This document shows positions 34,348-63,567 of a stretch of DNA of 64,000 nt, in pieces (position 1 is the first letter of the stretch; each line of letters begins with the position of its first letter). A program made the position numbers and the translations under genes. The notes beneath the pieces are model-generated. The model had not been told where the DNA came from. It did no database searches and worked only from the letters and a program-made list of their open reading frames with translations. The stretch comes from a virus. The stretch lies in UHGV virus genome UHGV-1370948. One strand, 5' to 3'.

Positions 34348-34360
34348 CAAAGGAAAACAC

Positions 34361-35503: not shown

Positions 35504-35577
35504 GCCTTTTAGTTTGTTTTTGTGACCTGGTTCGCTGGGTCACAATAATCACATCATTCAAATGCACGGAATTAAAA

Positions 35578-36444: not shown

Positions 36445-36547
36445 AAAAGATGAATTATGCCTTGATAAGTAAATACTTATTGATGTATATTCTTTCCCGC
36501 CTTGTATTATTTTGTTTTGCTTAAACACCACCCCGTAAGAACCTTAG

Positions 36548-36579
36548 CGGTCGGCCATTTGGTCGACCGTTTTTTTTTC
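36548..36579 (+). terminator. rho-independent terminator
   Basis: cggtcggcc-attt-ggtcgaccg followed by a T9 tract. Confidence 0.6.
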
Positions 36580-36639
36580 TGCAATACCTCTTGTTGTTGT
36601 GTAAAATAAGTAAATCATTACTTACCAACGAGAGACGAA

Positions 36640-37731
36640 ATGAACGAACTATTCGAAAACGGCCTTTTGACCGATTCATCCTACGCCTGTGTTCTCGCGG
36701 AAGCCGCCTCCTCCAACATTAAGTCAGACAATCGCACTGGAACTCCTACTATTGGCACCTGCTATGTGAATTCACAGTATCCGCTCTGGGGCGCTGCCGT
36801 TCCGCTTATCTCCGCCAAAGCCGTCAATCTGAAGCCTCTACTTGTAGAGCTTGAGTGGTATTTGAAAGGAACCGGTGATGTCTCTTTTCTGCGCGAACAC
36901 AACGTAAAAATCTGGGATGCATGGGTAAAAGAAGACGGCACGCTTGGCCCGGTATATGGCAAGCAATGGCGTCGCTGGAACGATACCCGGATCGTCAATC
37001 GATATGAATTCGTTAAAAACGGTCTGGACTATCGCAAGCGCGGCTACAAAGTCGAGGGTTATCTGGGCCACGAAGAAGATCGCGTCGTTCTCTCTCGTGA
37101 AATTGACCAGTTACAGCGCATCGTCGACAAGCTGCGAAGCAACCCGACTGATCGTCGCATGATGATGAGCGCGTGGAATGTTGGAGAACTCGAAGACATG
37201 GCACTGCCGCCGTGCCACTTCATGTATCACGTTTGGAGCCGCGAACTCGGCTTTGAAGAGCGTCTGCGCCAGGCCAATGCCATCGGTGAGGTTCATGCAA
37301 AATATCTCCACGAGTCACGCTATACGGCTCTACTGGCCGAGATTGAGCGCCGCGGCGAAGCCAGCGAAGAAATGCTGGACTCATTAAACATCCCCCGCCG
37401 TGCGCTCTGTTCGGCAATGATTCAACGTAGCGTCGATGTGTTCGTCGGTATGCCATTCAATATCGCCGGCTACGGCATCCTGACGTCTCTGATTGCTCAG
37501 ATCACCAACCACATGCCGATGATGTTCTCTCACTTCGGTATGGACGTTCACGTCTACGAAAACCACATGGACGGTGTTAACGAGATGATGGATCGCGACA
37601 TCCCGGAAAATTCAGACCCGGTCGTCATTTTTCCCGAGTCGTGGAAAGAGATTGATGACTTCTGCTGGCAGGACGTTCGCATCGAAGGTTACGCGCCGCA
37701 TCCGTGGATCAAAGTGCCGGTGGCTGTTTGA
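36640..37731 (+). CDS. thyA: thymidylate synthase (ThyA family) with two insertions
   Basis: 363 aa. GPVYGKQWR, catalytic ALPPCH, DVFVGMPFNIAGY (Asn, dUMP-type) and the ThyA-like C-terminus IEGYAPHPWIKVPVAV. Insertions of about 35 aa and about 55 aa relative to E. coli ThyA. Confidence 0.8.
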   Translation: MNELFENGLLTDSSYACVLAEAASSNIKSDNRTGTPTIGTCYVNSQYPLWGAAVPLISAKAVNLKPLLVELEWYLKGTGDVSFLREHNVKIWDAWVKEDGTLGPVYGKQWRRWNDTRIVNRYEFVKNGLDYRKRGYKVEGYLGHEEDRVVLSREIDQLQRIVDKLRSNPTDRRMMMSAWNVGELEDMALPPCHFMYHVWSRELGFEERLRQANAIGEVHAKYLHESRYTALLAEIERRGEASEEMLDSLNIPRRALCSAMIQRSVDVFVGMPFNIAGYGILTSLIAQITNHMPMMFSHFGMDVHVYENHMDGVNEMMDRDIPENSDPVVIFPESWKEIDDFCWQDVRIEGYAPHPWIKVPVAV

Positions 37732-37732
37732 T

Positions 37733-38146
37733 ATGGCTAAGGGAATGTTCGCGCTCGTGGAGCTGGATGACGTAGTCGCAGACAGCAGACACCGCGCCTC
37801 CGTAGACATTGAAAAAGACCGCATCGACATGATGTCCGGTGACGAGCTGATTTACCCAACGAGCAGGATGCTGAAAGGCTTCTATCGCTCGGGTATTGAA
37901 ATCGTGCTGGTCACAACCAAACGTCTTTTGAAAGAAGAGCGGGAAGTTACCCGGGCGTGGCTTTCCGCTCACGGCGTCAGTTACGACTATTTGGTTCAGG
38001 CCGAAAGCGTGGAGCATCTGGCTCGATGGATCAAAGACAACCAGCGGGAAAATATTTTTGTCATGGCGATTTGTGCTGGCAACAAGCTAATCAGCATGGC
38101 GAATAACCACCCGCACAAGCCTCATATTTACCAGGTTCAACGATGA
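37733..38146 (+). CDS. HAD-superfamily phosphatase (possible nucleotidase)
   Basis: Begins MAKGMFALVELDDVVAD, a DxDxV motif I. About 137 aa. Confidence 0.4.
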   Translation: MAKGMFALVELDDVVADSRHRASVDIEKDRIDMMSGDELIYPTSRMLKGFYRSGIEIVLVTTKRLLKEEREVTRAWLSAHGVSYDYLVQAESVEHLARWIKDNQRENIFVMAICAGNKLISMANNHPHKPHIYQVQR

Positions 38147-38625
38147 GAATGATAGCGGCCGTTGGCCGAAATTTTGAAATAGGCAGAGGAAATGATCTGC
38201 CTTGGAAATGCCCCGCAGAACTGAGTCTCTTCAGACAGTTGACGCATGGGTTCACCGTAATCATGGGCAGAAAAACAGCCGAGAGTCTGGGTAAGGCATT
38301 GCCGGGTCGACGCAACGTAATGCTGACACGTTCACCAGCTGTAGTGGCGCCTCAAGGCATCCAGAACGCCTCAGTCGAACGCTGTTTGCGCGAGTTCCCC
38401 AATGCGTGGGTTATCGGTGGCGCCGTCGTGTATGAGGTGATGCTTCCGCATGTGACGGAAATTTGGCTGAGCCATATCAATATTGAAGTGCCGGATGCAG
38501 ACGCTTTCTTCCCGTTTGAAGCAATGCGTCAGATGGGTTTTGAAGCGGTTGATAAGGTGAATGAATTTGCTGGTGATGAGAATTCACCATCGTTTAAACA
38601 AATTGTTTACAGGAAGTTGAAATGA
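38143..38625 (+). CDS. dihydrofolate reductase
   Basis: 160 aa. MIAAVGRNFEIG...LPW...VIMGRKT..S.G..LPGRRNV aligns with FolA. Confidence 0.8.
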   Translation: MRMIAAVGRNFEIGRGNDLPWKCPAELSLFRQLTHGFTVIMGRKTAESLGKALPGRRNVMLTRSPAVVAPQGIQNASVERCLREFPNAWVIGGAVVYEVMLPHVTEIWLSHINIEVPDADAFFPFEAMRQMGFEAVDKVNEFAGDENSPSFKQIVYRKLK

Positions 38626-39272
38626 AAATTGGCCTTTGTGGTGCGCAAGGAACGGGTAAAACGACGCTGGCGAAAGCTTACAGTGAAGTGTCAGGTATCC
38701 CATACATCGACGCTAAAGTCGGCGATTTTCTCAACGAGATAGACGTAGATTTGTCACGAAGCGATATGCCGATTGTTGAACGGATGAAGGCGCAATTAAT
38801 GGTGGCCGGCCACATCGCGAGCATAACTGAGGCGCCAGATCTCCTCAAAACCGGGTTTATTATCGACCGCACGCCTATCGACGTCATGGCGTACACCCAC
38901 GACATTGCCGTTCCACACTACAAAAATGATGAGGTGCTGGAGCTGTATGCTCAGACGCATATGGTATGTATGGACGCGGTCTCGGAGAATTTTAATCTGT
39001 GTCTCATGCTGCGCCCCGGTGTCCAGCTTTCCTCGCAAGACCATTACCGAAAGCAGAGAGCCTCACTGCAGCCGTTCTACGTTAACCACATCGATATGCT
39101 CATGGTTTCGATGATCATGTCGTTTTCAACGAAAGTGGTTGCCGGCTCACTATCTCGATTTGCGTTTATGCAGGACGACGTTGTTGACCTGAGCCTCCGC
39201 GTCGATGCCCTGGAGGACATCGTGAGAAATATCGCTTTAAATTCTGTTACGAAGCGCGAGCCTTGTCATTGA
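38622..39272 (+). CDS. P-loop NTPase, probable (d)NMP kinase
   Basis: GAQGTGKTT Walker A at the N-terminus. About 216 aa. Confidence 0.5.
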   Translation: MKIGLCGAQGTGKTTLAKAYSEVSGIPYIDAKVGDFLNEIDVDLSRSDMPIVERMKAQLMVAGHIASITEAPDLLKTGFIIDRTPIDVMAYTHDIAVPHYKNDEVLELYAQTHMVCMDAVSENFNLCLMLRPGVQLSSQDHYRKQRASLQPFYVNHIDMLMVSMIMSFSTKVVAGSLSRFAFMQDDVVDLSLRVDALEDIVRNIALNSVTKREPCH

Positions 39273-39327
39273 TATTGATCCCCTGTTCGCATGAGTCAGA
39301 ATAATAAAAAAAAACAGAGGAAAGCAC

Positions 39328-39735
39328 ATGTATAGCGCTGCCGAAGAACTTGACAGAAAAGTTTCAGAAACCCTTGTGGACATAATCAAAAAGCAGACTG
39401 GCGGTTTGATGACGACGAATGAGGCGAAAGCAGCCATTCATTCGGTGTTCTGTTCTGTCATGGGTCTGGTAGGCCCGGATGTCGCCGAACTTCTAGAAGA
39501 GGCAATGAATACGATAGAGAAGGAGCGACCGTCGCCGTTCCCTCTCTATCTGAAAACTGCCAATGGCGTTTATATCTCGGTAACGCCAGACCCTATGATC
39601 AGGAGAGTTTTCGTCAGGGTTATGGCTGGTGAATATCGAACAATGAATTACGAGTGCGAAAGCGCAAGCAGCACGATTAAAAAGGCACTTGAAGTGGTGC
39701 AGTTACTTGTCAAACAGGGTGCAAAACGACTATGA
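39328..39735 (+). CDS. hypothetical protein
   Basis: 135 aa. Consensus RBS. Confidence 0.5.
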   Translation: MYSAAEELDRKVSETLVDIIKKQTGGLMTTNEAKAAIHSVFCSVMGLVGPDVAELLEEAMNTIEKERPSPFPLYLKTANGVYISVTPDPMIRRVFVRVMAGEYRTMNYECESASSTIKKALEVVQLLVKQGAKRL

Positions 39736-40274
39736 CAGTTGCAACAGGTGTGGATATTGAGACCACTGGTCTCGATGTTTACTCAGGTCATAAAATTATT
39801 GAGATCGCTCTTGTCTCATATGAGTTAGAGACCTCGCGGAAAATTCATGAAGTGTCGCTGAGGTTCAACCCACGGCGCAGCATTGACGCGAAAGCCCAGG
39901 CAGTCCACCACATCTCGCTTGAGATGCTGGCCGACTGTCCACTGTTCGAAGATAAAGCCGCTGCGCTGGCTAAAGCATTGGCAGCGGCGGATGTGTGGGT
40001 CGCGCACAACGGTCGACAGTTCGATATCCCCTTCATCACCAAGCAAATGAGTGATTGCGGCGTAGAGCTACCGCAGCGTCCGCTGGTGGACACCATGGAT
40101 GCGCGGTGGGCATGTGAGAACGGCAAGATCCCCCGATTACAGGAACTAGCCGTCGCCATGGGATTCGTCTATGACGAGGAAAAGGCGCATGGGGCGCTTT
40201 ATGATACTGACCTCATGATGAAGTGTTTTATGAAGGCCAGAAACGATTACGGATTCTTCCCAATACCTTCCTGA
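39732..40274 (+). CDS. DnaQ-like (DEDDh) 3'-5' exonuclease
   Basis: Exo I motif DIETTGL. Exo II (HNGRQFDIPF) and Exo III (HGALYD) regions. Confidence 0.7.
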   Translation: MTVATGVDIETTGLDVYSGHKIIEIALVSYELETSRKIHEVSLRFNPRRSIDAKAQAVHHISLEMLADCPLFEDKAAALAKALAAADVWVAHNGRQFDIPFITKQMSDCGVELPQRPLVDTMDARWACENGKIPRLQELAVAMGFVYDEEKAHGALYDTDLMMKCFMKARNDYGFFPIPS

Positions 40275-40295
40275 TTACCACCACACCAAAAAGTC

Positions 40296-40315
40296 GCCGC
40301 CTGGCGGCTTTTCTT
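40296..40315 (+). terminator. short GC hairpin followed by a T-tract (weak terminator)
   Basis: gccgc-ctg-gcggc followed by ttttctt. Confidence 0.4.
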
Positions 40316-40416
40316 ATGCCTCAAAACAAGATGTTTACCTGATTGATTTATCTTTTATGCCTGCTGTCGCATGTCAAAATAACTTCATTGAAACGATTAC
40401 AACAAAGGAAAAACAC

Positions 40417-41211
40417 ATGAGCGCTACACATTCAACTAATAAAGAAAACAGCAACGCAGACCTGATCGCAATGCTGTCAGAGCTAGATGGCTTAAACCCC
40501 ATTGAAGAGCACGAAGAGGTTGCGGGTGAAGTTGTTGAGGTGAAAAAACCTACGACCTACACGACTGATGATCTGTTCAGCGAACTCTTGCCGCTGGTCT
40601 CATCTGAAAAGCCCGTCAGAAGTGAAGAAGAGGCGATACAGGAGCTTCTAAGTAATATTGATGATGAAATTAAGCCGATTGAGAAATCGATAGAAGTGGT
40701 TGAAGAGCCGGTTGAAGCTGTTGCAGCGCCAGTAGCTGAAGAACAGGCATCGGATACAAAGTCAGAACCTGAAAAGCCGAAACGCTCACCATCTTCAACC
40801 GGCGCTCGCAAAAAACGGTTCTCAATGGATCAACTTTCAGACGAAGTCATGGCTGAGCTAGGTTTTGAACGCAAAGCCTTCATGGATGCATATAATGCTT
40901 GTCCGGTAAAAGCGATGGACAAGGTGCAGAACTTTATGGCCTGGAGTCAGGGGTTGGCTGAGCTTAGCGTATATACCCAGATATCGGTCACTCATCTCAT
41001 TAACGCAGGCACCAGCGATACGGCAGGATTCCGTCTGGCTATGATGAGCAATCCAACAAAGCCATACCCTTCATCGACCGCGTCAGCGCAGGCGGGGCAG
41101 ATGATGAGCATCCTTCCGGTGTTGGGGATGGCGATCAAAGATGGTAAAACGCTCACGTTGAATGAAGATTCACCGTTGGTTAAGAAATTTAGAAGAGAAA
41201 TACTTTTGTGA
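40417..41211 (+). CDS. hypothetical acidic protein
   Basis: Consensus RBS. E/D-rich middle region. Confidence 0.5.
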   Translation: MSATHSTNKENSNADLIAMLSELDGLNPIEEHEEVAGEVVEVKKPTTYTTDDLFSELLPLVSSEKPVRSEEEAIQELLSNIDDEIKPIEKSIEVVEEPVEAVAAPVAEEQASDTKSEPEKPKRSPSSTGARKKRFSMDQLSDEVMAELGFERKAFMDAYNACPVKAMDKVQNFMAWSQGLAELSVYTQISVTHLINAGTSDTAGFRLAMMSNPTKPYPSSTASAQAGQMMSILPVLGMAIKDGKTLTLNEDSPLVKKFRREILL

Positions 41212-41481
41212 AGAAACATTATCATGCATAGCTATTTTTCGGTAAAGTTACGGTTTTGCTTATGTCTGATGCTGTGATATGTACAATTCTTTTGAAAGGA
41301 AGTTGTGTATGTTTGAAAACACAAGCGGCCGCTTTCTTACCTTGTTACATGCTTTCATGAGTTATGTTATGCTGCTTGAGGTATCATAAGGCTAAGAATC
41401 TTAAGCACTTAGTCAGTGAATTGGTTAAGTTATCTACGATTTGTGTATTAACAAGATGGATAAATGAAAATGGTTGTAAAA

Positions 41482-41898
41482 ATGAAAAAACAAATCATCG
41501 CATCCTTGCTGCTTATGGTTGGCTTTAATGCGTCGGCAGAACCTGTTTGTCGTTACGCAGCATTTCAATTAAATGATCCTTCGACAGAAGTATTGCTTTG
41601 TAAAAATACAACTGGAAATCTAATAATAGCAAGTAGAGTAAATGGAAGGATAGATAATCATTTTTGGGGCGTTCCAGATAAACAACTGAAAAAAATAGAA
41701 AAGATAGAAAACGGCTCAAATGTAAAGGGCTATCAAGTTACTTACTATAATTTATTGAATCATAAGGTGGTTGTTTCTCTCTTAGTTAAAGATAATAATG
41801 GAAAAATAACATCTGAAATGAGAAAGGTGAATAAACAAGAACATGTGGATGACACTATCAAAATGAATCCAAATGGTATGACATTCAATTTTTATTGA
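41482..41898 (+). CDS. hypothetical secreted protein in an AT-rich block
   Basis: Signal peptide MKKQIIASLLLMVGFNASA. Beta-rich. ATG at 41464 is an alternative start. Confidence 0.5.
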   Translation: MKKQIIASLLLMVGFNASAEPVCRYAAFQLNDPSTEVLLCKNTTGNLIIASRVNGRIDNHFWGVPDKQLKKIEKIENGSNVKGYQVTYYNLLNHKVVVSLLVKDNNGKITSEMRKVNKQEHVDDTIKMNPNGMTFNFY

Positions 41899-41939
41899 AA
41901 TGTCGTCGATGGGCAAGCCTATTAAAGGAATGATTTTCA

Positions 41940-43025
41940 ATGAAAGAGCAAATAGACCTAGCAATAAAAGAAGATAAGATTTTTTTTCTTGGTAAAAAAT
42001 TACAAGATGATTGGTATCAGGCTTTTGCTGAGTGGTCTGATATAGCCCGGAAGGATAATAATCCTGAAGCATATTTCAATATGGCGTATTGCTATTTAAC
42101 AAGCAATGGAACCAAAAAAAATATAGAGAAGGCTATTGAATATTATGAACTTGCTGGCTCATTAGGTTTAAATGAAGCCTACACTCACGCTTACAAAGCA
42201 AGAGCGGAATATATTTTCAAGGATGACATTAATGATTATATTTCTTATCTAGAATCTTTGAAAGAAAAGGGTGTTTGGAGTCATGACCCTGACGAAAAAG
42301 GGTGCAGAACTTATTTTTCTTGTGAGCACGAAGCATTGCAATTTCAGGATGTTATGATACAACTCTCACTGAGATCATCGCCTGGCGATAGAGCGGCAAA
42401 AGCTAAAGAGCTGCGGGGAAAATATAAGGCCCACTACATAAATTTGGTTTTAGATCATTTCATTGCAATATCTGAAGTTTCAGCTGAAGTGGAGTACAGA
42501 GAATCAAAAATTAGCCACCTAGAACATAAAGGAAGAATACATAAAGGCAATTCATTGTTAAGCACAAGATATTCATATAAGGTTGAATATTTGGCTAAGC
42601 TAAAAAATAATGGCAAGGGAGATGCACATTTTGATTTTACATTCCGCGCTGCGAATATGGCAGAGATGAAGGCAGCACATGACAAAGACCCACTCAATGG
42701 GTTGAACAAGCTGTATACAAAAATCTCCAATATAATGTTAAAGCCAGGGGAGCAGGTAGAGAAAATATTGGTAACTGATTTGCCAGTAAAAAACCTGAGT
42801 TCAAACTGCGTAAACTTTTCTTATGATTTTAAAAGAAATTTTGAGAGGTATTACGTGTCAAGTAGTTATAGAGGCTATATCACCTATGATTTTGACATCA
42901 AACCTGGGAGTATTTCAGTTGTCAGAAAGGCAAGTGAAACTGAAAAATATAAGATAAAGCAATTTATAGCTTATGCGGTAGTGATCTTGGGTATCTATCT
43001 CTACATAAAGCACTTATTGGGTTGA
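41940..43025 (+). CDS. Sel1/TPR-like repeat protein with a C-terminal transmembrane anchor
   Basis: Sel1-like repeat NNPEAYFNMAYCYLTSNGTKKNIEKAIEYYELAGSLGLNEA. C-terminal hydrophobic IAYAVVILGIYLYI. Lies in the AT-rich block. Confidence 0.55.
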   Translation: MKEQIDLAIKEDKIFFLGKKLQDDWYQAFAEWSDIARKDNNPEAYFNMAYCYLTSNGTKKNIEKAIEYYELAGSLGLNEAYTHAYKARAEYIFKDDINDYISYLESLKEKGVWSHDPDEKGCRTYFSCEHEALQFQDVMIQLSLRSSPGDRAAKAKELRGKYKAHYINLVLDHFIAISEVSAEVEYRESKISHLEHKGRIHKGNSLLSTRYSYKVEYLAKLKNNGKGDAHFDFTFRAANMAEMKAAHDKDPLNGLNKLYTKISNIMLKPGEQVEKILVTDLPVKNLSSNCVNFSYDFKRNFERYYVSSSYRGYITYDFDIKPGSISVVRKASETEKYKIKQFIAYAVVILGIYLYIKHLLG

Positions 43026-43224
43026 ACACTCCTAGGCCGTTCCACTACTTTGCCAGACTTTCTAAAAAGCCCCATGTGGGCTTTTTCTCTTGACTAGCAC
43101 CATCGCATCACTCACCACAGAAAAACGCGATCCCGAGCGTTACAGAGAAGATCCCGATACGCCCTCTTGTCAGTTACAATTAATCCTGTAAAATAAGTAA
43201 GCATCTACCTATTTAAGTTATCCA

Positions 43225-43857
43225 GTGAACGGTTCTCAGAAAATAAAAAACAGAGAGCGCGATGGCAATCTACGCGACCTCTGGCGAACGCCTCTGTGGT
43301 TGTTTCATGCTTTCGAAGTTTATCTCGGCATGAAGTTCCAGGTCGACGTCGCGTGCAACAAAGACAATGCGATCCTGCCTGACTTTATCGGCGTAGAACG
43401 TGACGCGCTAAAGTCCAGCTGGTGCGAAGCCGGTACAATCGCATTCCTCAACCCGCCCTACTCCAAAATCAAACCATGGATAGACGCCGCGGCGCGTGAA
43501 CAGGTCAATGGTGTTACAACTGTCATGCTGGTTCCTCAGTCCCTCGACACTCAGTGGTATCTGGACGTTAAGCGCAGCGCGAATCAGACCGTACTTATTG
43601 TTGGCGGTCGCGTCGCTTTTATGGAGCCAGATACAACGCTGGGATTGGTTGAAGTTCGCGAGAATACTGGCGGTAGCATGTTGCTGGTCTTCCGGGGCTT
43701 CTATGGCGCTGCTGGACACCAGACGACGGAGATCGACATCGGCGTGATGAAATTGTTGGGTGGCTATGATCCACTAACGGCGAAACGGAAGCCACGTAAG
43801 AAGCCTGTTAAGAAAGCATCTCCACCCCTTAATAAAAAGACTTTAAAAGCGCTTTAA
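43225..43857 (+). CDS. phage Dam-family DNA N6-adenine methyltransferase
   Basis: WRTPLWLF...NPPYS...VMLVPQS pattern of the phage N6A-MTase (Dam) family. Lys-rich C-terminal tail. Confidence 0.8.
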   Translation: MNGSQKIKNRERDGNLRDLWRTPLWLFHAFEVYLGMKFQVDVACNKDNAILPDFIGVERDALKSSWCEAGTIAFLNPPYSKIKPWIDAAAREQVNGVTTVMLVPQSLDTQWYLDVKRSANQTVLIVGGRVAFMEPDTTLGLVEVRENTGGSMLLVFRGFYGAAGHQTTEIDIGVMKLLGGYDPLTAKRKPRKKPVKKASPPLNKKTLKAL

Positions 43858-43881
43858 ATAATATACAGAGCCAGGCTTATT

Positions 43882-43925
43882 TAAGAGATTCAGGCACTTG
43901 CGTGCCTTAATCTCTCTTTTGTCTG
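43882..43925 (+). terminator. long hairpin followed by a T-rich tract
   Basis: agagattcaggcac-ttgc-gtgccttaatctct followed by cttttgtc. Confidence 0.5.
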
Positions 43926-44013
43926 GAGTGTATTCAAAAGAACCTCAAACACCAGCTTTGTAGCCTGTTTAATGGCTTTAAGATGGCTTTAACAAAACGA
44001 AAAGGATCGCAAA

Positions 44014-44238
44014 ATGACTTATGAAACAAACATCGTCGCCCTGGCGGAGAACGAATTTCTGGACAACACTCGGAAGCTGATGGAGAAGCGAGATACGGCC
44101 TTTAGTCTTTATCAATGGGTCGTTGATAGTCTGCGTGAAGGAAAACACACTGAAGAGATTGGGATGCTGGTTGGCGACCTGATTAACTCAAACTTTGCTC
44201 TTGAGGTGCAGCTCAAGGGTCGTTCTGAGGCTCGATGA
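44014..44238 (+). CDS. hypothetical protein
   Basis: 74 aa. Its stop is immediately followed by an ATAAGTAA...TTACTTAT palindrome. Confidence 0.4.
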   Translation: MTYETNIVALAENEFLDNTRKLMEKRDTAFSLYQWVVDSLREGKHTEEIGMLVGDLINSNFALEVQLKGRSEAR

Positions 44239-44888
44239 TAAGTAATTATTTACTTATAAATATCTGGCATGTATCATTGCTGGGCTACCAATGGTAGCCC
44301 AAATTTTTTAGCAGCCAAGCTAACACAAAATGGCAACGACACCAGTCTCTCGGTGAGAAACGGTCGGGACTGGTGGAGCAGTAAAGAACCTTGAGCAAGC
44401 GCTCTTGGGAAGGCCCAGACGGGATTTGTAGCATAGGGTCTGTATTGCCGGTGTGGACGCGAAGTGGTAACTCGCGTCGGTTGAGGGCAAAAGCTACAGG
44501 GCTGTGAGACAGGGGGAGCGACTTAGATACCTGACTCACAGAATAAAAGCTCAACCATTAAATTCTAAGAGGAACCTATACGAGTAAGCCCTTTCCACGA
44601 GAATGAAAGTGCTTACCAGTAGGGGGAGTTGCTGGACTTACGCCTAACTTTTTCGATTAAAAAGACACTGATTCGACCGAACCGTTAAACAATATGGGTC
44701 GAAGTTTTTTTAACGAAATCGTTAGGATAAGTATGTCCAGCAGCCCCTACCGAGAAGATTAAAAACATCAGCGAAACGGCGAAACAGAGAAGCGTAAGGC
44801 AACGAACTGGAAAGGCGAAATGGCGAAAAAACCAACAAAACAAAAAGGCATCAAATACAACCGGCAGAAACATATCTCTGACAAAAAC

Positions 44889-45389
44889 ATGGCGACAAAA
44901 TTTGACCCGCGTTTGAAAGAGGTTGTTCTGTATACGGACGGATCATGCCTGAAGAACCCAGGCGGTGCTGGTGGAGTTGCGGCCATCGTTCGTTTTGGCG
45001 AACACTATAAAACAGTTCAAGAAGGTTTTCGCTCCACAACCAATAACCGCATGGAAATGCTCGCTGCGATCCGAGGGTTGGATCTACTTAATCAAAAATG
45101 CAACGTGACGATCTACACGGATAGCCAGTACCTAATTAATGGCATTTCGCTGTGGATTAAAGGTTGGAAAAAGCGCGGCTGGAAGCTGGCGAACGGTGAG
45201 CGGGTTAAAAATGTGGATCTCTGGCAGGAGCTGGATGCTGCGGTATCCGGTCATCGTGTCCGTTGGTGTTGGGTTAAAGGTCATGATGGAAACCCAGACA
45301 ATGAGCTGTGCGACATGATGGCGCGATCGGCTGCTGAATCGCCAACGATGGTTGATCGTATTTACGAATCTATTTGTGCCTATAATTAA
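44889..45389 (+). CDS. rnhA: ribonuclease HI
   Basis: YTDGSC, RMEMLAAIRGL, YTDSQY and the WVKGHDGNPDNELCD motifs. ATG at 44820 would add a basic 23-aa N-terminal extension. Confidence 0.75.
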   Translation: MATKFDPRLKEVVLYTDGSCLKNPGGAGGVAAIVRFGEHYKTVQEGFRSTTNNRMEMLAAIRGLDLLNQKCNVTIYTDSQYLINGISLWIKGWKKRGWKLANGERVKNVDLWQELDAAVSGHRVRWCWVKGHDGNPDNELCDMMARSAAESPTMVDRIYESICAYN

Positions 45390-45487
45390 TAAGTAAGTGT
45401 TTACTTATTCGCTGGCGTGTTGTATCTTTGGTCTGCAAGGATGATAGCGCGGTTAGCGCTTGTCTCATGGAAGAGACGACCTGTAAG

Positions 45488-45517
45488 CGGCTGAGTTTTC
45501 TCAGCCGCAACTATTTT
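45488..45517 (+). terminator. rho-independent terminator
   Basis: gcggctgag-tttt-ctcagccgc followed by aactatttt. Confidence 0.5.
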
Positions 45518-45539
45518 AAGGCTCCTGTTAAGAGGCTTT

Positions 45540-46034
45540 ATGATTAATTACCTCTCCGATCTTCTTCGAAATAAGCGGTTTGAGCGAAATGTCATCTCAA
45601 ATCTAAACTTCCTCGAAAGTCGTATCCAAAACCTCAATGAGCGAATCCGAGTGCTTGAAAGCACCGTAGTGTCACAAGCCAACACGATCACCTCTCTCAC
45701 GAAGAGCAGTGATTCGACGCCGCGCCCCGACCCGTTCCCTGATAAAAACTTTGCCCATGGAAAATTACCAAAGAAAAAGACTACAGCCGCTGGCGCTTCT
45801 GGTTATCGGGCTGACTCTGTCACCTCTCGGCATCGCGCCAGTTACGCAGATGATGCAGCCGGCGCTCAGCAATTCACGGAAAACAGAAGCCAAGTCCACG
45901 AGGACAGCGCATCTGTCTCCAGACATCACGGCTCATCCCACCACCACGACTCCAGTTCCTGCTACAGCAGCCACGGGGACGTTGGAGGGTATGACTCTGG
46001 ATGCTCCGATTCGTCGTCCGGGTCTTTTGACTGA
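45540..46034 (+). CDS. hypothetical protein (coiled-coil N-terminus, Ser/His-rich disordered C-terminus)
   Basis: 164 aa ORF. Its own upstream AAACAAATTGTTTA motif lies downstream, ahead of the next gene. Confidence 0.4.
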   Translation: MINYLSDLLRNKRFERNVISNLNFLESRIQNLNERIRVLESTVVSQANTITSLTKSSDSTPRPDPFPDKNFAHGKLPKKKTTAAGASGYRADSVTSRHRASYADDAAGAQQFTENRSQVHEDSASVSRHHGSSHHHDSSSCYSSHGDVGGYDSGCSDSSSGSFD

Positions 46035-46102
46035 GTCATTAGCCTGATATTTAAACCTAAAAAACAAATTGTTTAACAGCATAAGAAAACAAAGGAAATC
46101 AC

Positions 46103-46528
46103 ATGTTTGGTATGTTTAAAAAGAAAGTCCGCAAAGCAGCCGTTGAAGTTAAGAAAATGGAGAACCGCGATGCTGTAGAAGCAACCGTATGGGGCGCTTA
46201 TGCGATCGCCTATGCGGATGGCTCATGCGACGCGAAAGAGATCAGCGTTCTGGAAAAAACCATCTCCGCTCTGCCCTCTTTCTCCCCGTTTGCTGGCGAG
46301 ATTGCCCAGATGAGCGCCAATATTCGCTCTCGCTACGAAGCATCCCCTCGCTCCGCAAACGCTGAAGCCATGCGCCAGCTGGCCGACGTTGCCGGTACAA
46401 CCGATGCGGTCGACGTTTTATGTCTGTGCCTGGATATCGCTGATAACGACGGCATCGATGAGAAAGAAGAGGTGATGCTGAAGAAGATCGCTCAGGCGTT
46501 GCAGTTGTCGCTGGATCAGTATCTGTGA
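46103..46528 (+). CDS. TerB-like domain protein (putative)
   Basis: 141 aa. WGAYAIAYADGSCDAKEISVLEKTIS ... DGIDEKEEVMLKKIAQAL pattern typical of TerB / DjlA-N domains. Confidence 0.45.
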   Translation: MFGMFKKKVRKAAVEVKKMENRDAVEATVWGAYAIAYADGSCDAKEISVLEKTISALPSFSPFAGEIAQMSANIRSRYEASPRSANAEAMRQLADVAGTTDAVDVLCLCLDIADNDGIDEKEEVMLKKIAQALQLSLDQYL

Positions 46529-46683
46529 TGGCTCGCGTCAGCATTGCGCTGGCGCTGCTGGTTTTGTCTGTGCTGGTGGATTTCACCAGCCGGATTCTGT
46601 CAGTGGCCGCGGACGGTGTTTTGGTCATAACAGGCATAACTCTATTACTGCCTGCTCTGATTAAAGGTGCCAAGACAAAGTAA
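46528..46683 (+). CDS. small membrane protein (51 aa)
   Basis: Hand translation MARVSIALALLVLSVLVDFTSRILSVAADGVLVITGITLLLPALIKGAKTK. ATG overlaps the TerB-like stop. Followed by a strong terminator. Confidence 0.35.
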   Translation: MARVSIALALLVLSVLVDFTSRILSVAADGVLVITGITLLLPALIKGAKTK

Positions 46684-54461: not shown

Positions 54462-54773
54462 ATGAAGAAAGTAGGCATTCTCGTTTTAGCACTTATGGCA
54501 AGTTTCGGTGCTTCAGCTAAACCTCTTACGGAAGCCGGTTTGAAAAAACATGCTGAGAACGTTTGTGGAATGAGAGATACATTGGATCTAAAAGTACCTT
54601 TCGATAACAAAGCTCCAACTGAGCCATTGAACACTGTAAACCGTGGTGTTGTTCATGCTGCCAGAGATGCTGCTCAAGTAAACAAAAAGGTCATTAACGG
54701 GAGTCTTTCTGACTGCCAGGACATCGTTGCAAAGCAATACAGTTCTGACGAGAAAAAATACGCCGCTGATTGA
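54462..54773 (+). CDS. hypothetical secreted protein
   Basis: GGAGAT RBS. Signal peptide MKKVGILVLALMASFGASA. Confidence 0.45.
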   Translation: MKKVGILVLALMASFGASAKPLTEAGLKKHAENVCGMRDTLDLKVPFDNKAPTEPLNTVNRGVVHAARDAAQVNKKVINGSLSDCQDIVAKQYSSDEKKYAAD

Positions 54774-55689
54774 CCTTTCACTGACGTAAACAGTCAACCT
54801 CTTGCAGTTTCTATAAGGAGAGGTTGATCATCACTTTCCCACCTAATCAACCACTCACCAACCCGCCACACCGCTATAAACAAGGCAATAACACACACAA
54901 GAAAACAACTTGTTTGCAGATCAACGTAACGTCAAACCAAAACCACTTTTTTCCCTCATTTTTTGACATTTCGCCATCGCCACTCTTACACCGCCAGAAT
55001 CCCCACCAGAACGCACAGGTTTCGATTAAACAGGAAAAGCCACACCAACACCCAATCACAAAACAGAATCGTTTAAAACGCGTTACAGAGCGTTTAAGAG
55101 GATAAGCCAATCAGCTCGAAAATCGAGAGAAGAACCACCAACAACACATTCAGGCAAAACCTTTTATCATAACCGAAAGAGCGGAACCGGCATACCACCA
55201 ACCAGAGGAAGTGAGGCTCAAAAATTCCCAAGAACACCACTCGACTTATCGCAGGCATTGAGACACCCGCCAAACCCCAACAGGCACGAAAACACCATCC
55301 AGCTTTCCCCAGGCACACGAGAGAAACGATGAAGAGATAATCCCATACCTGCCATTCCTCGATAGCAGAGCAACCTCAAATTCCCAGAATTGCGGAAAGC
55401 AGTCAGGACAAGGCTTAAAGCTACATTCACCCAGATAACAACTTGTTTAAGCGCACAAGAAAACAAACAGTCGGCTACCTGCCATCTCCCAGAACAAAAC
55501 GACGAAACAATCACTTCGCCTATATGCCATTACCCAAGGTAAAACGAATCCCGGATAAGAGAACAACCCAGAGGAAAACCACCAGGAAAGAACAACCACA
55601 TCACAGGAAGCGATAGAAGGAAATCCCGTAGAGAAGAACACTCCCAGATACACACTCACTATAGGAACGATAGAGAAGGTCAGAAGAAA

Positions 55690-55763
55690 TTTGGGAAGAT
55701 ACCCAGAACAGTTTGGGAACAGGAAAGGGACAGTTTGGGAAGGTCATTTACCGTTTTGGGAAG
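55690..55763. repeat. four direct repeats TTTGGGAAG/C with 21-23-bp phasing
   Basis: Direct read. Copies at 55690, 55713, 55734 and 55755. Confidence 0.7.
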
Positions 55764-55940
55764 GTAGCGTTAAGGGAGTTCTGGGGTATTGGGATTAAGG
55801 CGTTATAGAGGGAAGAGGTTTGGGCGTTTAGGCGTTTGTGTAAGTAGGGTCAGAAAAAAAGTCGCGCTTCCGTTTTCGTAGAAATTCAAGCTGTGATTTT
55901 CCAGCCCTGCAAAAACGTTGGCGCCGTCCAGTCACCCTAC

Positions 55941-56027
55941 GGTCAGAAAACGGGTCGGTAGCCTTTTAGCCGCGGTAAAACGGGGAACGGCCAGATACAG
56001 CCTACGGTCGGGAAACGGGGAGGTTGC
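55941..56027. repeat. three roughly 22-nt direct repeats GGTCAGAAAACGGGTCGGTAGCC / CGGTAAAACGGGGAACGGCC / GGTCGGGAAACGGGGAGGTTGCC at about 32-bp spacing
   Basis: Direct read. A fourth, degenerate copy lies at about 56150 (ctgtcagaaaatcgacgggtgtc). Confidence 0.6.
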
Positions 56028-56281
56028 CGTGTAGATGAGGCAGCTTAATGGAAGGTTAGCCGAGTGGCCGCGGGAGTTGGGAGGCTGGTGGCATGAGGCG
56101 ACCCAGGCATAGGTCCGTATAAATACGGTCACACCACCAGCGAGATTCATTCTGTCAGAAAATCGACGGGTGTCAATGAGTTAAGTCCGGCCATTTTATC
56201 GTGTTCCCCTTTCTAATGTGCTTTTTCGCCGCTGTGTTATTGCGATAATAACCAGCATAAGAAAACAACGGAGTAAAGCAC

Positions 56282-56491
56282 ATGTACAAGCATTTAAATA
56301 TCAGCATCACACTTCAAGGCGTGGACACTGATGAGATTTCTTTGGATGACGTTATTCGCTCTGAGGATGTAGCGGGGCGCATTGGTTCACTAATTGGCGA
56401 AGGATATCGCGAAGGCTCGTTTGACTTCTCTATCTCTGACGAACCACTGTCAGTGGCCTGGAATTGCACCACGACGGAGACACCTGAATGA
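56282..56491 (+). CDS. hypothetical protein
   Basis: 69 aa. RBS gagtaaagcac-ATG. Overlaps the next gene. Confidence 0.4.
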   Translation: MYKHLNISITLQGVDTDEISLDDVIRSEDVAGRIGSLIGEGYREGSFDFSISDEPLSVAWNCTTTETPE

Positions 56492-61210: not shown

Positions 61211-62788
61211 TTACGATTCAAGAATCGAGAAGTCGAATTTCCCGTCTATATCTAAAATGCCTTCAGAAAAACCAGGCGTAGTGGAAATGATGTGTTTTCT
61301 CTCGTAAGAGTGAGACATCAGATGTTTGTTGGACGTATCCAGAAAATCGGCAATGAAACATACGTTCGCTTTCCCCTTTTTCTTTCGTAGACCACGACCC
61401 ACGCGTTGTCGAAGTTCAACTTCAGCCTTGCCACCACCGGCTATGATGACCGCGCCTACGCTTGGCACATCTACGCCGACGTCCAGAATTGTCGAGCCGA
61501 TAAGAACGTCGATTTTCCCCGCGGCCAGTTCTGCCAGTTTTGCGGAACGAGTTGCGGCAGATGACTTGCCGTTGATAAAGCTCGAAACCAGCCCACGCTC
61601 TTCCAACATAGTCTTTAGAATCTGCCCATGCCGTTCATGTCTAACCAGCGTCATGCAGCTCAGATTGTGGCGCTTAAACTCTTCAGCAGTATCCACGATA
61701 GCTCGGTTTCTGGCGAGATTATACGTGATACCTAACTGATAAGCTTTTTGGTATGCGGTCGACATACTAACGCGGAAGTTGACATGTTTGCCTGTTAATT
61801 CCTTGTTTAGAAGCTCGATATCTGGAACGTACCCGATTTTACGATAAAGGAAAACTGGTTTTGCTAAAATACCCTTATCAATCAGATATTTTTCAGACAC
61901 TTTGATTTCTATTCGACCAGATACAGCCATCAGACGCATGTTATCTTCGGTACTGTCCTTCATGAAAGGCGTCGCGGTTAGCGCAAGACGATAGTCTGCG
62001 TTTTTGCAGAGTCTGGCGATTTCATAAAAACTCTCACCCGACGCCTCATGAGCTTCCTCAAGGATTAGAAGCGAGACCTTAGACAGCATTTGTTTCATCA
62101 GTTCACGTCGACGTAGATGAAATTCTCGTTTCTCTTTCGACAGATCGCTACCAGGCTCGCTCAGGAAGCTGGATAGCGTCTGGACAGTCGCCACGTTAAT
62201 AAATCGAGAGAACTTCAGCTCGCCGGAACCAATGATACCGACCTTTTCGTTTTTGAGCCACGGCTCACCATGGGCAGCTCGATAATCGATGGACTCCTGG
62301 AAATTGTCAGCCATCTGGAACATTAGCATCGAGCGAGTGGTGATAAACAGCGTCATCCTGCCGATCCTTGCTGCGGCTTTGCACGCGATTTGCGATTTGC
62401 CGCCACCGGTGGCAACCTGAGCAATCATTCCACCAAATCGAACCAGGCGCTCACAAGTCTCGTCCTGATAGGCGTAATCAGGATTGTATGGGAATGGGCT
62501 TACGACGGGGTTTGGGTTGCCTAGAGGTTTGGTCAGTTCTTTTCGAACCAGAGCACATTTGATGCCAGACCGGCCAAGATCTGCAGCAACGGCACGAGCG
62601 AACCCGGCCGGAAATACACCGTTGGCCCAGCTGAACATTGAGCTTTGACCATCCCAGCCACTTCCGCCGCCGCCGTATCTTCCGCCGTCTACTTCATAGC
62701 TGAGCATTTTCTGTATTTTCAATTTCACATCGTCATTTGCTCCCTTGACGATGGCATTGACTGCGTCAAACACGATTCTGACTGTCAT
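61211..62788 (-). CDS. SF2 DEAD/DEAH-box helicase (type III restriction res-subunit-like) with a 190-aa N-terminal extension
   Basis: Motif I ATGGGKS, motif II LILEEAHE, motif III LTATP, motif VI QRVGRGLR. The N-terminal Gly-rich segment is of unknown function. Confidence 0.75.
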   Translation of the reverse strand: MTVRIVFDAVNAIVKGANDDVKLKIQKMLSYEVDGGRYGGGGSGWDGQSSMFSWANGVFPAGFARAVAADLGRSGIKCALVRKELTKPLGNPNPVVSPFPYNPDYAYQDETCERLVRFGGMIAQVATGGGKSQIACKAAARIGRMTLFITTRSMLMFQMADNFQESIDYRAAHGEPWLKNEKVGIIGSGELKFSRFINVATVQTLSSFLSEPGSDLSKEKREFHLRRRELMKQMLSKVSLLILEEAHEASGESFYEIARLCKNADYRLALTATPFMKDSTEDNMRLMAVSGRIEIKVSEKYLIDKGILAKPVFLYRKIGYVPDIELLNKELTGKHVNFRVSMSTAYQKAYQLGITYNLARNRAIVDTAEEFKRHNLSCMTLVRHERHGQILKTMLEERGLVSSFINGKSSAATRSAKLAELAAGKIDVLIGSTILDVGVDVPSVGAVIIAGGGKAEVELRQRVGRGLRKKKGKANVCFIADFLDTSNKHLMSHSYERKHIISTTPGFSEGILDIDGKFDFSILES

Positions 62789-62853: not shown

Positions 62854-63567
62854 ATGGATTGTATCAAAAATATGGACGTTAAAATCAGTATTTTGACGGT
62901 GGAGACAGCGCAGTTACGGCCGAATCCCTGGAATACGAATGTCGTTGGCGCTCGAAACTTCGACAAGCTGAAAAACTCAATCGACCGGCTTGGCTTTTTT
63001 AAGCCGATTCTGGTTCGTGAGTTGCTGGACGGCACTTACGAAATTCTCGGTGGGGAGCACCGCTGGCGTGCCGCTATTGAGCAGGGTATGGCAACCGTTC
63101 CAGTCACCTCCGTTGGCGTGATTGATGACAACACCGCCAAGCAGATGTCACTGGTTGATAATGAGCGTTACGGTGAAGATGATGCCGTCGAGCTGCAGCG
63201 CCTTATTGAAAGTATTCAGGCTGAAATTGACTATTCGCTGGCAGATATTGCCCCGTATGACGAGGAAATGACTGAAACGCTGGCGCGTGAGTCCAGTATC
63301 GACCTGGAAGAGCTGGGTCTGTTGGGCGAAGAGGAAGATCACGTCGTTGAGCCGGACACTCGCGAGAAGAAGGAGCGTCTTGGCGTTGAACACCAGACTA
63401 TGCGCTTCAAGGTTTCGTTTGACACGGCAGAGAGCGTGACGGAAGTCATCAAAACTATCATCCGGGAGCAGGGGATTAAAACCGGCAGCGAAATGGAAGA
63501 CGCTGGCGAAGCTCTGGTGTGGCTCACTCAATATTACAAGGACGTGACCGATGAAAAAGTCGTTTGA
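62854..63567 (+). CDS. ParB N-terminal-domain (ParB/Srx-like) protein
   Basis: ILGGEHRWRAA motif. 237 aa. Acidic C-terminal half. Confidence 0.6.
   Translation: MDCIKNMDVKISILTVETAQLRPNPWNTNVVGARNFDKLKNSIDRLGFFKPILVRELLDGTYEILGGEHRWRAAIEQGMATVPVTSVGVIDDNTAKQMSLVDNERYGEDDAVELQRLIESIQAEIDYSLADIAPYDEEMTETLARESSIDLEELGLLGEEEDHVVEPDTREKKERLGVEHQTMRFKVSFDTAESVTEVIKTIIREQGIKTGSEMEDAGEALVWLTQYYKDVTDEKVV

Follow-up and report, generated by a model that had tools for sequence, protein, structure and literature searches.

What could be the function of a 1.5-kb region that encodes no protein in a phage genome? The question is raised by positions 54774–56281 of the virus genome UHGV-1370948, analysed here as a single strand of 64,000 nt (hereafter the window, to which all coordinates refer). 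A sequence-only reading of this DNA had described the region as strand-skewed, free of open reading frames (ORFs) and endowed with phased repeats, and had proposed that it is a second replication origin, a centromere or a non-coding RNA (ncRNA) locus. The comparison presented here indicates that the region, hereafter the element, is an ancient and strongly conserved functional non-coding module found in at least five diverged lineages and in about 900 sequenced SSU5-type phage-plasmids; its functionality is suggested by an architecture and a composition that have been kept across lineages diverged beyond detection by BLAST. As to its role, we tentatively prefer a lytic replication origin that is activated by transcription and controlled by a repressor.

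The element is non-coding and contains no conserved ORF. It is delimited by the stop codon of the upstream gene at 54773 and by the start of the next gene at 56282, and it carries no annotated coding sequence in plasmids that are 100% identical to it. Its longest ORFs comprise 93 amino acids (aa; TTG start, plus strand), 98 aa (GTG, minus strand) and 72 aa (ATG, minus strand), each of the three plus-strand frames is interrupted by 9–14 stop codons, indels among close relatives measure 1, 2, 9, 21, 22, 34 and 43 nt, and the region shows no 3-nt periodicity (mean z of 0.5). Taken together, these observations establish its non-coding status, and the stops in every plus-strand frame, the non-triplet indels and the low period-3 score also rule out a hidden gene of unusual composition. 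Thus, the claim of a 1.5-kb region free of ORFs was correct, and most of the 859 SSU5-type matches in PLSDB plasmids likewise lie over no annotated feature. Annotators either leave the region blank or call spurious ORFs (SSU5_108–110, CYRAN_103/104).

The DNA spanning positions 54700 to 56400 is 100% identical to the Klebsiella plasmids NZ_CP084809.1 and OW968253.1, and about 30 further non-mobilizable Klebsiella and Citrobacter plasmids of about 110 kb match it at 82–97% identity; this window-type element is present in 32 PLSDB plasmids. When a phage collection was searched by BLAST, the sole recognisable part was the gene that follows the region, with 72–74% identity in Salmonella phage SSU5 and in Klebsiella SSU5-like phages. 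The matching annotated plasmid encodes terminase, portal, capsid and tail proteins. It also specifies a T4-like set for replication and recombination, with a primase and a DnaB-like helicase, a split DnaE polymerase, a recombinase of the RecA/UvsX type, SbcCD-like proteins, thymidylate synthase and NrdAB; a ligase and a RepA of the Rep3 family are encoded in addition. Given the plasmid identity and this content of phage and replication genes, the window evidently belongs to a Klebsiella SSU5-type phage-plasmid.

The most conspicuous property of the element is its strand asymmetry. From 54830 to 55680 the plus strand consists of 38.4% A, 29.5% C, 16.3% G and 15.7% T. The resulting A+C content of 68% lies 7.6 standard deviations above the background (50.6 ± 2.3% in 850-nt intervals), the maximum elsewhere in the window being 57%, and the C/G ratio reaches 3.45 within this tract compared with at most 2.07 elsewhere in the window (200-nt intervals). 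The description of some 850 nt as almost exclusively A and C was therefore right about the skew, which is the strongest in the window, and overstated its exclusivity. The plus strand then becomes purine-rich (67–68% between 55550 and 55750), and at about 55700 the skew flips from C>G and A>T to G>C and T>A, with the polarity of an origin rather than that of a terminus. The switch to an A+G-rich segment that had been reported is likewise real; the stretch from 55690 to 55860, with 36.8% G, 28.1% A, 26.3% T and 8.8% C, is better called C-poor and G-rich. The A/C-rich body shows no 10.5-bp periodicity. It contains TGCCAT(T/C)NC at 55351, 55481 and 55526 on the plus strand, together with six copies of CCCAGA and five of CCACCA on the same strand. 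Across the whole window, ACCACCA occurs 12 times on the plus strand and never on the minus strand.

The same profile is found throughout the SSU5 family. An ORF-poor gap of 1.4–2.0 kb lies directly upstream of the same gene of 69–72 aa in SSU5, pHCM2 and the E. coli phage Cyrano, as well as in plasmids and viral contigs from Enterobacter, Citrobacter, Buttiauxella, Salmonella and Klebsiella (the lineages and loci compared are designated below by L numbers where needed). The sequence similarity of these other lineages to the window is mostly below BLAST detection and their A+C profile is the same: in all of them, 100-nt bins are mostly 58–80% A+C over 700–1000 nt (up to 83% in L054) before the composition switches, and the skewed tract begins within about 10–20 nt of a TATAAG..GTTGATC block. 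The order of the parts is also kept, and runs as follows: TTTCTATAAG..GTTGATC; CAYAAGAAAACAA..ATCAACG-N4-GTCAAC; TTGAC(A/G/T)-17-TTAYAY; a palindrome with AAGAAAACAA; the A/C body with three to five same-strand copies of GCCATTAY; a purine-rich block; a G-cluster; the anchor CGTA(G/T)WWATTCAAG; the GRAAAMGG array; a promoter of the form TTGNNA-16-TGnCAGAAT on the minus strand, present in three lineages; and finally the promoter of the downstream gene. The GCCATTAY copies of the other lineages lie on the plus strand only, where 0.1 would be expected, and CCA is enriched in the element (z up to 5). The SSU5-type version was found in 859 PLSDB plasmids (449 from Klebsiella, 224 from Escherichia, 91 from Enterobacter, 49 from Salmonella, and others). 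Within one clade (19 sequences), the diversity along the element is 0.03–0.05, about that of the flanking genes; on the left side of the TATAAG block it jumps to 0.4–0.8, and this break identifies a mosaic boundary.

Three natural variants depart from this plan. In L010 (K. michiganensis) the centre of the element, corresponding to window positions 55000–55790, is replaced by unrelated sequence; in the recombinant L011 (C. freundii) only the first 580 nt or so are kept and joined to SSU5-type genes; and in L053, an IMG/VR contig, an IS-like insertion with an ORF on the opposite strand has replaced nearly the whole element. Since plasmids and contigs that lack most of the element persist in nature (L010, L053), it is not needed for plasmid maintenance.

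The second defining property is the presence of phased direct repeats. On the plus strand, TTTGGGAA occurs four times, at 55690, 55712, 55734 and 55755 (array 55690–55762), hence at spacings of 22, 22 and 21 bp, as had been claimed, with mutually unrelated spacers. The ninth base of the repeat is G in three of the four copies, and just two further copies exist in the whole window. Close relatives contain two, three or four copies as a result of deletions of exactly 21, 22 or 43 nt. In SSU5, pHCM2, Cyrano, L012, L015, L016 and L019, GRAAAMGG cores (extended to approximately GRAAMGGCTGG) stand four in a row exactly 22 nt apart, usually followed, after a 31-nt gap, by two more copies separated by 22 bp; their 15-nt spacers show no relation to each other and vary with the lineage. 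Runs of four GRAAAMGG motifs at 21–23 bp (mostly exactly 22) were detected in 29 of the 50 loci, the longest run in 2000 shuffles being two. The conservation of an exact 22-bp spacing between diverged spacers argues that the spacing itself is under selection. A conserved core and spacing with free spacers would be expected for proteins bound on one face of B-DNA, and an RNA target would not need such an arrangement. The helical phasing proposed from the sequence is thus borne out in both types of array, TTTGGGAA in the window and GRAAAMGG elsewhere, and the repeat motif itself differs by lineage (TTTGGGAA vs GRAAAMGGCTGG). A scan of the whole collection for the 22-bp pattern returned the SSU5 family and ordinary tandem iterons of other phages. 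One of the latter, in an unrelated phage contig, has a GGAAACGG core repeated at 22 bp and falls within an ORF of 373 aa that follows a cII-like gene, which is where the O-gene origin of lambdoid phages is located.

In the window, the stretch 55938–56030 is homologous by position to the strict 22-bp array found in the lineages of SSU5, pHCM2, Cyrano and L012; (A/G)(A/G)AA(A/C)GG motifs lie there on the plus strand at 55947, 55977, 55984 and 56012, with irregular spacings of 30, 7 and 28, and it is the TTTGGGAA array, 150 nt further left, that shows regular phasing. Three 22-nt units begin here at 55938, 55972 and 56003; the three units previously described at about 32 bp are therefore real and more loosely arranged than stated, with spacings of 34 and 31. 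The fourth, degenerate unit described near 56150 corresponds to a GTCAGAAAA-type copy at 56154. A 37-nt pair at 55933/55998 is 78% identical, L003, L004, L006 and L007 carry one extra 34-nt unit in this array, and TCGGGAAACGGG (56008–56019, plus strand) is conserved in at least five of eight lineages.

Between the A/C body and this second array lie the purine-rich and G-rich parts, all on the plus strand. The purine-rich transition (55550–55690, 67–68% A+G) contains CAGGAAA/CAGGAAG and ATAGAG motifs and a conserved GAGAACAACCCAGAGGAAAAC (55559–55579); in L054 its counterpart extends over about 200 nt and consists almost entirely of purines. Following the TTTGGGAA array, a C-poor block with G-clusters (55762–55860) includes GGGAGTTCTGGGGTATTGGG and, at 55823–55838, GGCGTTTAGGCGTTTG. 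With a G4Hunter score of 1.40, its site at 55769 ranks among the highest in the window, whose 99.9th percentile is 1.24. Eight relatives were scored over the upstream 2.1 kb; in seven of them the 25-mer richest in G falls in the block preceding the anchor, and G4Hunter values range from 1.3 to 1.9 across the set. These G-clusters and the purine-rich non-template strand are of the composition that favours RNA:DNA hybrids. The anchor itself, CGTAGAAATTCAAGC (55877–55891), reads CGTATTTATTCAAG in other lineages; it is preceded by T(A/G)TAAG at a fixed distance of 39 nt and by a hairpin of a purine run with a pyrimidine run.

The left end of the element resembles a control region. Similarity between plasmids begins at 54770–54829, the left boundary of the module on the plus strand, and the genes upstream of it differ. 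A TTGACC (54770–54775, plus strand) overlaps the upstream stop codon and is followed by an imperfect plus-strand hairpin formed by TCAACCTCT and AGAGGTTGA (54794–54802 and 54819–54827). The family-wide block TTTCTATAAG..GTTGATC (54808–54829, plus strand), with TATAAG at 54812–54817 and GATC at 54826–54829, aligns in at least five of eight diverged lineages. The most conserved block of all, AATAAC..ACAAGAAAACAA fused to a palindrome and followed by GATCAACG-N4-GTCAA (54888–54935, plus strand), resembles an early-promoter leader without its gene; in form it is a homologue of the promoter–leader segment that precedes the downstream gene (56244–56268), with GGCAAT in place of GATAAT. Further downstream, a promoter-like site designated P+ consists of TTGACA (54963–54968), a 17-nt spacer and TTACAC (54986–54991), and faces the A/C-rich tract on the plus strand. 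Every lineage has, in the equivalent position, a site of the form TTGAC(A/G/T)/TTGAT(C/G)-17-TTA(C/T)A(C/T) whose spacer sequence varies; a generic promoter scan did not call P+, whose -10 hexamer is weak.

One of only two promoter-like matches returned by that generic scan lies at the other end. This site, P- (56149–56176, minus strand), matches at 10 of 12 positions and is TG-extended; it comprises TTGACA (56176–56171), a 16-nt spacer and TGaCAGAAT, with its -10 at 56154–56149, and faces leftward into the repeat array. The pattern TTGACA/TTGAGA/TTGTGA-16-TGnCAGAAT is kept in three lineages with different spacers. P- is missing in SSU5 and pHCM2, which have a small minus-strand ORF there instead. 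This ORF, of 243 nt, is part of an insertion between the array and the downstream gene in SSU5, pHCM2 and some Citrobacter lineages (L002 (SSU5) 5685–5927, L018 (pHCM2) 2213–2455, L017 1156–1398). The right boundary of the element (56221–56281, plus strand) is the promoter and leader of the 69-aa gene, with GATAAT at 56244–56249, ATAAGAAAACAA at 56257–56268 and the ATG at 56282.

Two copies of a palindrome had been noted within the region and are indeed present: AAACAACTTGTTT at 54903–54915 and TAACAACTTGTTT at 55436–55448, the latter (with no strand assigned) followed by a leader-like ACAAGAAAACAA at 55455–55466. A palindrome followed by AAGAAAACAA is also found inside the element in the SSU5, L012 and L023 lineages. 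The suggestion that these palindromes are promoters pointing into the tract does not hold, since a palindrome has no direction and the 13-bp palindrome AAACAAnTTGTTT recurs at about 16 sites in the window, all of them intergenic (36 strand-hits vs 7.5 expected): 16577, 16602, 23440, 38596, 40324, 46062, 47526, 49989, 50999, 51050, 53587, 53880, 54903, 55436, 56947 and 58079. Each copy either overlaps the -35 of a GATAAT promoter or sits just past the -10 in a shared leader (ATAAGAAAACAA, AAGGA, ATG), a distribution that implies the behaviour of dispersed operators. The set thus looks like the operators of one phage regulator acting on many early operons, in a style resembling that of the P1 C1 regulon, and the regulator would presumably be the prophage repressor. 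Two further promoter candidates were rejected. TATAAG did not form a consistent site set in the plasmid, as a genome-wide (late) promoter motif would, and ACTCACTATAGG (55654–55665), a perfect 12-mer match to the T7 core promoter, was judged to be a chance occurrence because all close relatives have CACCATAGG, no other good copies exist in the window and no ORF for a single-subunit RNA polymerase was seen in it.

Analyses at the RNA level yielded no sign of a structured molecule. There was no relevant Rfam match in the window or in five relatives and no tRNA or tmRNA, and folding energies on both strands did not exceed those of shuffled sequences (z = -0.60, -0.82, -0.46 and +1.00). The sole consensus helix, formed by the purine run and the pyrimidine run before the anchor, is weak, because most of its pairing comes from composition (86% of cells pair vs 81% in shuffles). 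A structured regulatory RNA is thus not supported, nor is that form of the ncRNA proposal. What the folding predicts instead is a plus-strand RNA of the A/C tract that is intrinsically almost free of structure, with -106 kcal/mol per 696 nt (-0.15 per nt) compared with -186 (-0.27 per nt) for its complement. No complementarity in excess of shuffles was detected between the A/C tract and the G-rich (G/T) block, or between the C-rich 5' end and the G-rich 3' end. In the L012 lineage, the helix before the anchor scores as terminator-like on the plus strand and is followed by GTATTTATT, a U-rich tail, in place of which the window, SSU5 and pHCM2 lineages have GTAGAAATT. Over 54830–55680, the tract has the features of rut-type sites: its RNA is untranslated, folds weakly, contains more C than G and exceeds the 80 nt that such sites require. 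GGA occurs 9–24 times per element against 9–17 expected (z from -0.5 to 2.6), CA.GGA occurs 0–4 times per element, and these CsrA-type motifs lack the hairpin-loop context found in CsrB-type sponges.

The explanation that we favour, at a probability well short of even, is that the element is a cis-acting non-coding module of the lytic programme, namely a repressor-controlled, transcription-activated (R-loop or RNA-primed) lytic origin with iterons, separate from the RepA/iteron origin. In a lysogen, a regulator bound to the dispersed AAACAAnTTGTTT operators would keep the locus silent. Upon induction, transcription from the promoter-like site at the left end would proceed rightward through some 700–900 nt of untranslated, unstructured A/C-rich RNA and enter the purine-rich, C-poor block with its G-clusters, where the nascent purine- and G-rich RNA would stay hybridised to the pyrimidine-rich template. 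The displaced strand and the adjacent array phased at 22 bp might then serve as the assembly site for a phage protein, the DnaB-like helicase, the primase and the DnaE polymerase, and the convergent minus-strand promoter could modulate initiation. Transcription, repression, hybrid formation and initiation at this locus are all steps that we infer.

Several lines of evidence point to such an origin. The same order of parts and the same skew are maintained in at least five lineages diverged beyond BLAST; the arrays are iteron-like, with 22-bp spacing and copy numbers that change in unit steps; in every lineage the skewed tract begins with a conserved promoter-like site, and operator-type palindromes lie in or next to the element; the G-cluster block occupies a fixed position before the anchor in most lineages, the preceding 150–250 nt being purine-rich; and the skew flip at about 55700 has the polarity of an origin. 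The T4-like gene set is a further argument, as T4 starts replication from promoter-dependent R-loops. That the element is dispensable for plasmid life fits a role confined to the lytic cycle, and the RepA iterons differ from its repeats in sequence and lie 30 kb away. In addition, the two ORFs called inside the Cyrano element are not among the lysogeny-expressed genes in the excerpt of the table considered (PMC9928086), which fits silence of the element in lysogeny as far as that excerpt extends.

Other observations weigh against this explanation. No AT-rich unwinding element is present, the GC content being 41–60% throughout. The element in the window has neither canonical DnaA boxes (TTWTNCACA) nor integration host factor (IHF) sites (WATCAANNNNTTR), and among the other lineages just two have a DnaA box, one each. 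Fis sites and GATC clusters are absent or depleted, GATC occurring only in the left control region. The proteins adjoining the element have no initiator, Rep or DNA-binding domain according to Pfam or PHROGs, and the linked 69-aa protein is strongly acidic and therefore unlikely to bind DNA. The -10 hexamer of P+ (TTACAC/TTATAC) is poor for σ70, and an untranslated C-rich RNA should be a strong target of Rho, which would work against a long primer transcript. Moreover, the window's own lineage, like those of L023 and L054, has its GRAAAMGG motifs at irregular intervals. The cumulative GC and keto skews of the whole plasmid are dominated by gene orientation and by the element itself and are uninformative on origin use, and in the literature on SSU5, pHCM2 and phage-plasmids we found no replication, transcription or protein-binding data for the locus, nor any description of it, and nothing specific on an origin, an ncRNA or a transcriptome there. 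The proposal of a second origin is thus compatible with the phased repeats, the skew polarity, the G-clusters and P+, in the form of a transcription-dependent origin, and lacks an unwinding element, host-factor boxes and an initiator gene.

In its presumed mode of action, the element would most closely resemble a hybrid of two kinds of origin, one built on iterons, as in R6K or lambda, the other dependent on transcription or an R-loop, as in ColE1 and T4 oriF/oriG, with P1 oriL as the parallel for the repressor control. It shares with the R6K gamma origin, which has 22-bp iterons, and with the lambda origin in gene O the possession of four to six direct repeats with a core of about 8–12 bp, a centre-to-centre spacing of 22 bp with divergent spacers, and a copy number that changes by whole units; at least three phased direct repeats of 17–22 bp are a hallmark of this family. 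Unlike them, it lacks an AT-rich region for unwinding, DnaA and IHF sites, and any initiator gene of the Rep or O type next to, overlapping or enclosing the array, so that it fails the defining tests for the iteron-origin family, as it does for any Rfam family. With ColE1 RNA II, T4 oriF/oriG and P1 oriL it has in common a promoter-like site hundreds of nucleotides upstream and aimed at a purine- and G-rich zone, an untranslated leader, repressor-type operators, a candidate antisense promoter and, in its genome, a T4-like gene set. It is homologous to none of these origins; RNA II is highly structured, whereas the leader of the element would be unstructured, and P1 oriL, which is driven by the C1-repressed promoter P53, lies within repL, whereas the element is free of ORFs.

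Two further systems invite comparison. Herpesviruses possess lytic origins that are separate from the latent origin and produce G-rich, R-loop-forming non-coding transcripts. The oriLyt regions of EBV, KSHV and HCMV (for an example, see PMC12203722) resemble the present arrangement in combining a latent plasmid origin with a separate, repressed, ORF-poor lytic origin that is G-rich, strand-asymmetric and repeat-containing; these are eukaryotic viruses that share no sequence or proteins with the phage-plasmids, and the likeness is one of analogy only. Cluster A mycobacteriophages depend for the replication of their extrachromosomal prophages on a transcribed non-coding region instead of a Rep protein (Wetzel et al. 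2020, PMC7157519), which sets a precedent for non-coding origins in extrachromosomal prophages. Those RNA-based origins serve the prophage (plasmid) state, adjoin parABS and span about 0.4–0.5 kb (PMC7157519), whereas the plasmid state of the element's genome has a RepA and the Cyrano table excerpt gives no sign of lysogenic expression of the element.

The genes flanking the element are all co-oriented. The linked gene downstream (56282–56491, plus strand) encodes a strongly acidic protein of 69 aa (69–72 aa across lineages) that belongs to phrog_15489 and has no Pfam domain; its acidity and the lack of a known domain make it an unlikely candidate for the protein that binds the array, and it might be a DNA mimic or an anti-defence protein. 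Across lineages, 25 of its alignment columns are invariant. The origin of the plasmid state lies at the gene for the only Rep, RepA (Rep3_N; 24853–25965, minus strand), which is flanked on both sides by about 13 iterons (24594–24859 and 25986–26093) with a CCGCTGACAGCATA core and spacings in multiples of about 21 bp. These iterons are unrelated to the repeats of the element, and the reading of the element as a RepA incompatibility or control locus was rejected on this ground. The nearby helicase and two ParB-like genes mentioned in the sequence-only reading were confirmed: the helicase lies at 61211–62788 (minus strand), and a gene for a ParB_N protein (62854–63567) is followed by a ParB/Srx gene. 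Nothing ties the element functionally to the latter two, which lie 6.5 kb away in a late operon running to the terminase and whose products resemble phage proteins of the ParB/Srx nuclease type. A pac site was also considered and is unlikely because the terminase genes are about 13 kb from the element.

Several features of the wider genome were recorded alongside. The DnaE-type (Pol III alpha) polymerase is split over 14190–17793, with the PHP, NTPase and finger domains in 14190–16562 and the HHH_6 part at about 16640–17793; the short gap between them holds two operator palindromes (16577, 16602) and a ribosome-binding site. Outside the window, about 70 kb from the element, a gene for a small ParA/MipZ-like ATPase followed by a 72-aa ORF (NZ_CP084809.1, 12066–13101; L058) is a candidate type Ib partition pair. 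Upstream of the element, the window is offset by about 1.1 kb relative to NZ_CP084809.1 (window about 41.7–43 kb vs plasmid 68082–69062), so the two are not strictly collinear; the offset may reflect the copy of ISKpn26 (IS5-like) in the plasmid record. Near the right end of the element, an inverted pair of Chi octamers, GCTGGTGG (56084–56091, plus strand; 56134–56141, minus strand), forms the arms of a hairpin, and the versions in L012, L015, L016, L019, L020, L026 and L054 likewise have CCACCAGC close to their right ends. Both are evidence of low weight because Chi is 12-fold over-represented in the window (18 copies vs 1.5 expected). Its orientation, on the minus strand from 569 to 28102 and on the plus strand from 32033 to 46572, for example, flips between 28.1 and 32.0 kb, near the RepA origin, and is mixed after 56 kb.

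Two rival explanations place the function in the transcript. The element might be the gene for a long (about 0.9 kb), deliberately unstructured A/C-rich ncRNA that works at the RNA level, either by sequestering or loading a binding factor (Rho, Hfq, CsrA, S1 or a protein of the phage, for example) or as a cis-acting leader, the phased repeats being a separate matter. This doubtful, though not far-fetched, alternative would explain why a strand-specific skew begins within about 10–20 nt of the TATAAG..GTTGATC block in all lineages, why composition rather than sequence is conserved, and why motifs are enriched on one strand (three to five GCCATTAY vs 0.1 expected; CCA with z up to 5). An RNA poor in G and U cannot base-pair, in line with -0.15 against -0.27 kcal/mol per nt for its complement; the window-maximum C/G ratio of 3.45 is a signature of Rho utilisation, and the L012 version ends its tract in a terminator-like hairpin with a U-rich tail. 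However, the lineages of the window, SSU5 and pHCM2 have not kept that terminator, the promoter-like sites are weak, no lineage has an Rfam family, and the A/C tract has no excess complementarity to the G-rich tract or from end to end. CAGGAAA/CAGGAAG and CAGGGAAA motifs are repeated on one strand as in the CsrB/RsmZ sponge RNAs; unlike in those, the GGA enrichment is weak (z from 0 to 2.6) and outside hairpin loops, no Rfam match exists and the RNA would be far longer. The ORFs inside the Cyrano element are missing from the excerpted part of its lysogeny-expression table, and the exact 22-bp spacing is left unexplained. The same untranslated, C-rich, G-poor and unstructured RNA, reminiscent of rut regions such as lambda tR1, would alternatively suit a transcriptional insulator, that is, a giant Rho-dependent terminator against read-through from the upstream early operons, with arrays and palindromes as regulator sites that time the downstream genes. 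Read-through would be expected from the co-oriented flanking genes, the tract is far longer than the roughly 80 nt that Rho needs, operators and the next gene's own promoter lie at the right boundary, and the element stays at a mosaic joint while its flanking genes vary between plasmids. We nevertheless regard this explanation as unlikely, since a terminator requires neither 800 nt, ten times the necessary length, nor at least five conserved islands, nor phased 22-bp DNA repeats; a conserved promoter-like site upstream of the tract would yield only abortive RNA, and conservation along the whole 1.5 kb is as strong as that of coding DNA.

A third alternative assigns the repeats to partition, as a centromere or other DNA–protein scaffold bound either by the ParB-like proteins or by an adaptor (the small ParA-like ATPase with the 72-aa protein, encoded some 70 kb away). 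Helically phased direct repeats whose copy number varies resemble the centromeres of types Ib and II, for example those of pSK41 and R1 parC; no obvious repeat centromere was found beside the ParA-like gene, and in the phage-plasmid N15 the centromere sites are scattered at a great distance from the sop genes. Against this, the par-like genes are not adjacent, the ParB_N proteins belong to the operon to the terminase and resemble the nuclease type, plasmids lacking most of the element exist, the repeat motif varies between lineages, and neither the 800-nt skewed tract nor the G-clusters would be accounted for, all of which makes a centromere quite improbable. Finally, the region could serve no function by itself, being the remnant of a gene or junk DNA retained through linkage, with a skew due to mutational bias. 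No function has been demonstrated, the left part resembles a dead copy of an early promoter and leader, and some natural plasmids have lost parts of the element. This explanation is the hardest to sustain, and we give it very little credence: architecture, spacing and composition persist beyond BLAST divergence, an exact 22-bp spacing between diverged spacers needs selection, an A+C content of 68–80% is far past known replication and transcription skews, neither a remnant reading frame nor any 3-nt periodicity is visible, and about 900 genomes of a phage limited by its capsid would not have retained 1.5 kb of useless DNA.

It is conceivable, though we consider it doubtful, that the element represents an undescribed kind of phage element, in which the conserved property of a body of about 0.8 kb is the near-absence of G and U, giving an RNA built to be free of structure. 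Such an RNA might, with similarly guarded plausibility, act as a high-capacity decoy or loading strip for a host RNA factor, Rho being the obvious candidate, or as an obligatory leader, itself unstructured, that brings RNA polymerase to the initiation site of the G-clusters and iterons. Were this so, control of host transcription termination would be coupled to the switch from plasmid to lytic replication in a large family of clinically common phage-plasmids, and the locus would exemplify an unusual selection for a long structure-free RNA in a phage.

SSU5-type phage-plasmids are among the commonest extrachromosomal elements of Klebsiella, E. coli, Enterobacter and Salmonella, and some of them carry resistance genes; the element or its SSU5-type version is present in about 890 PLSDB records. 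The locus bears on how these phage-plasmids may switch from RepA-driven plasmid replication to lytic amplification, and, if it is indeed a lytic origin, it would provide a bacterial example of the herpesvirus-like logic of a latent origin plus a separate lytic origin.

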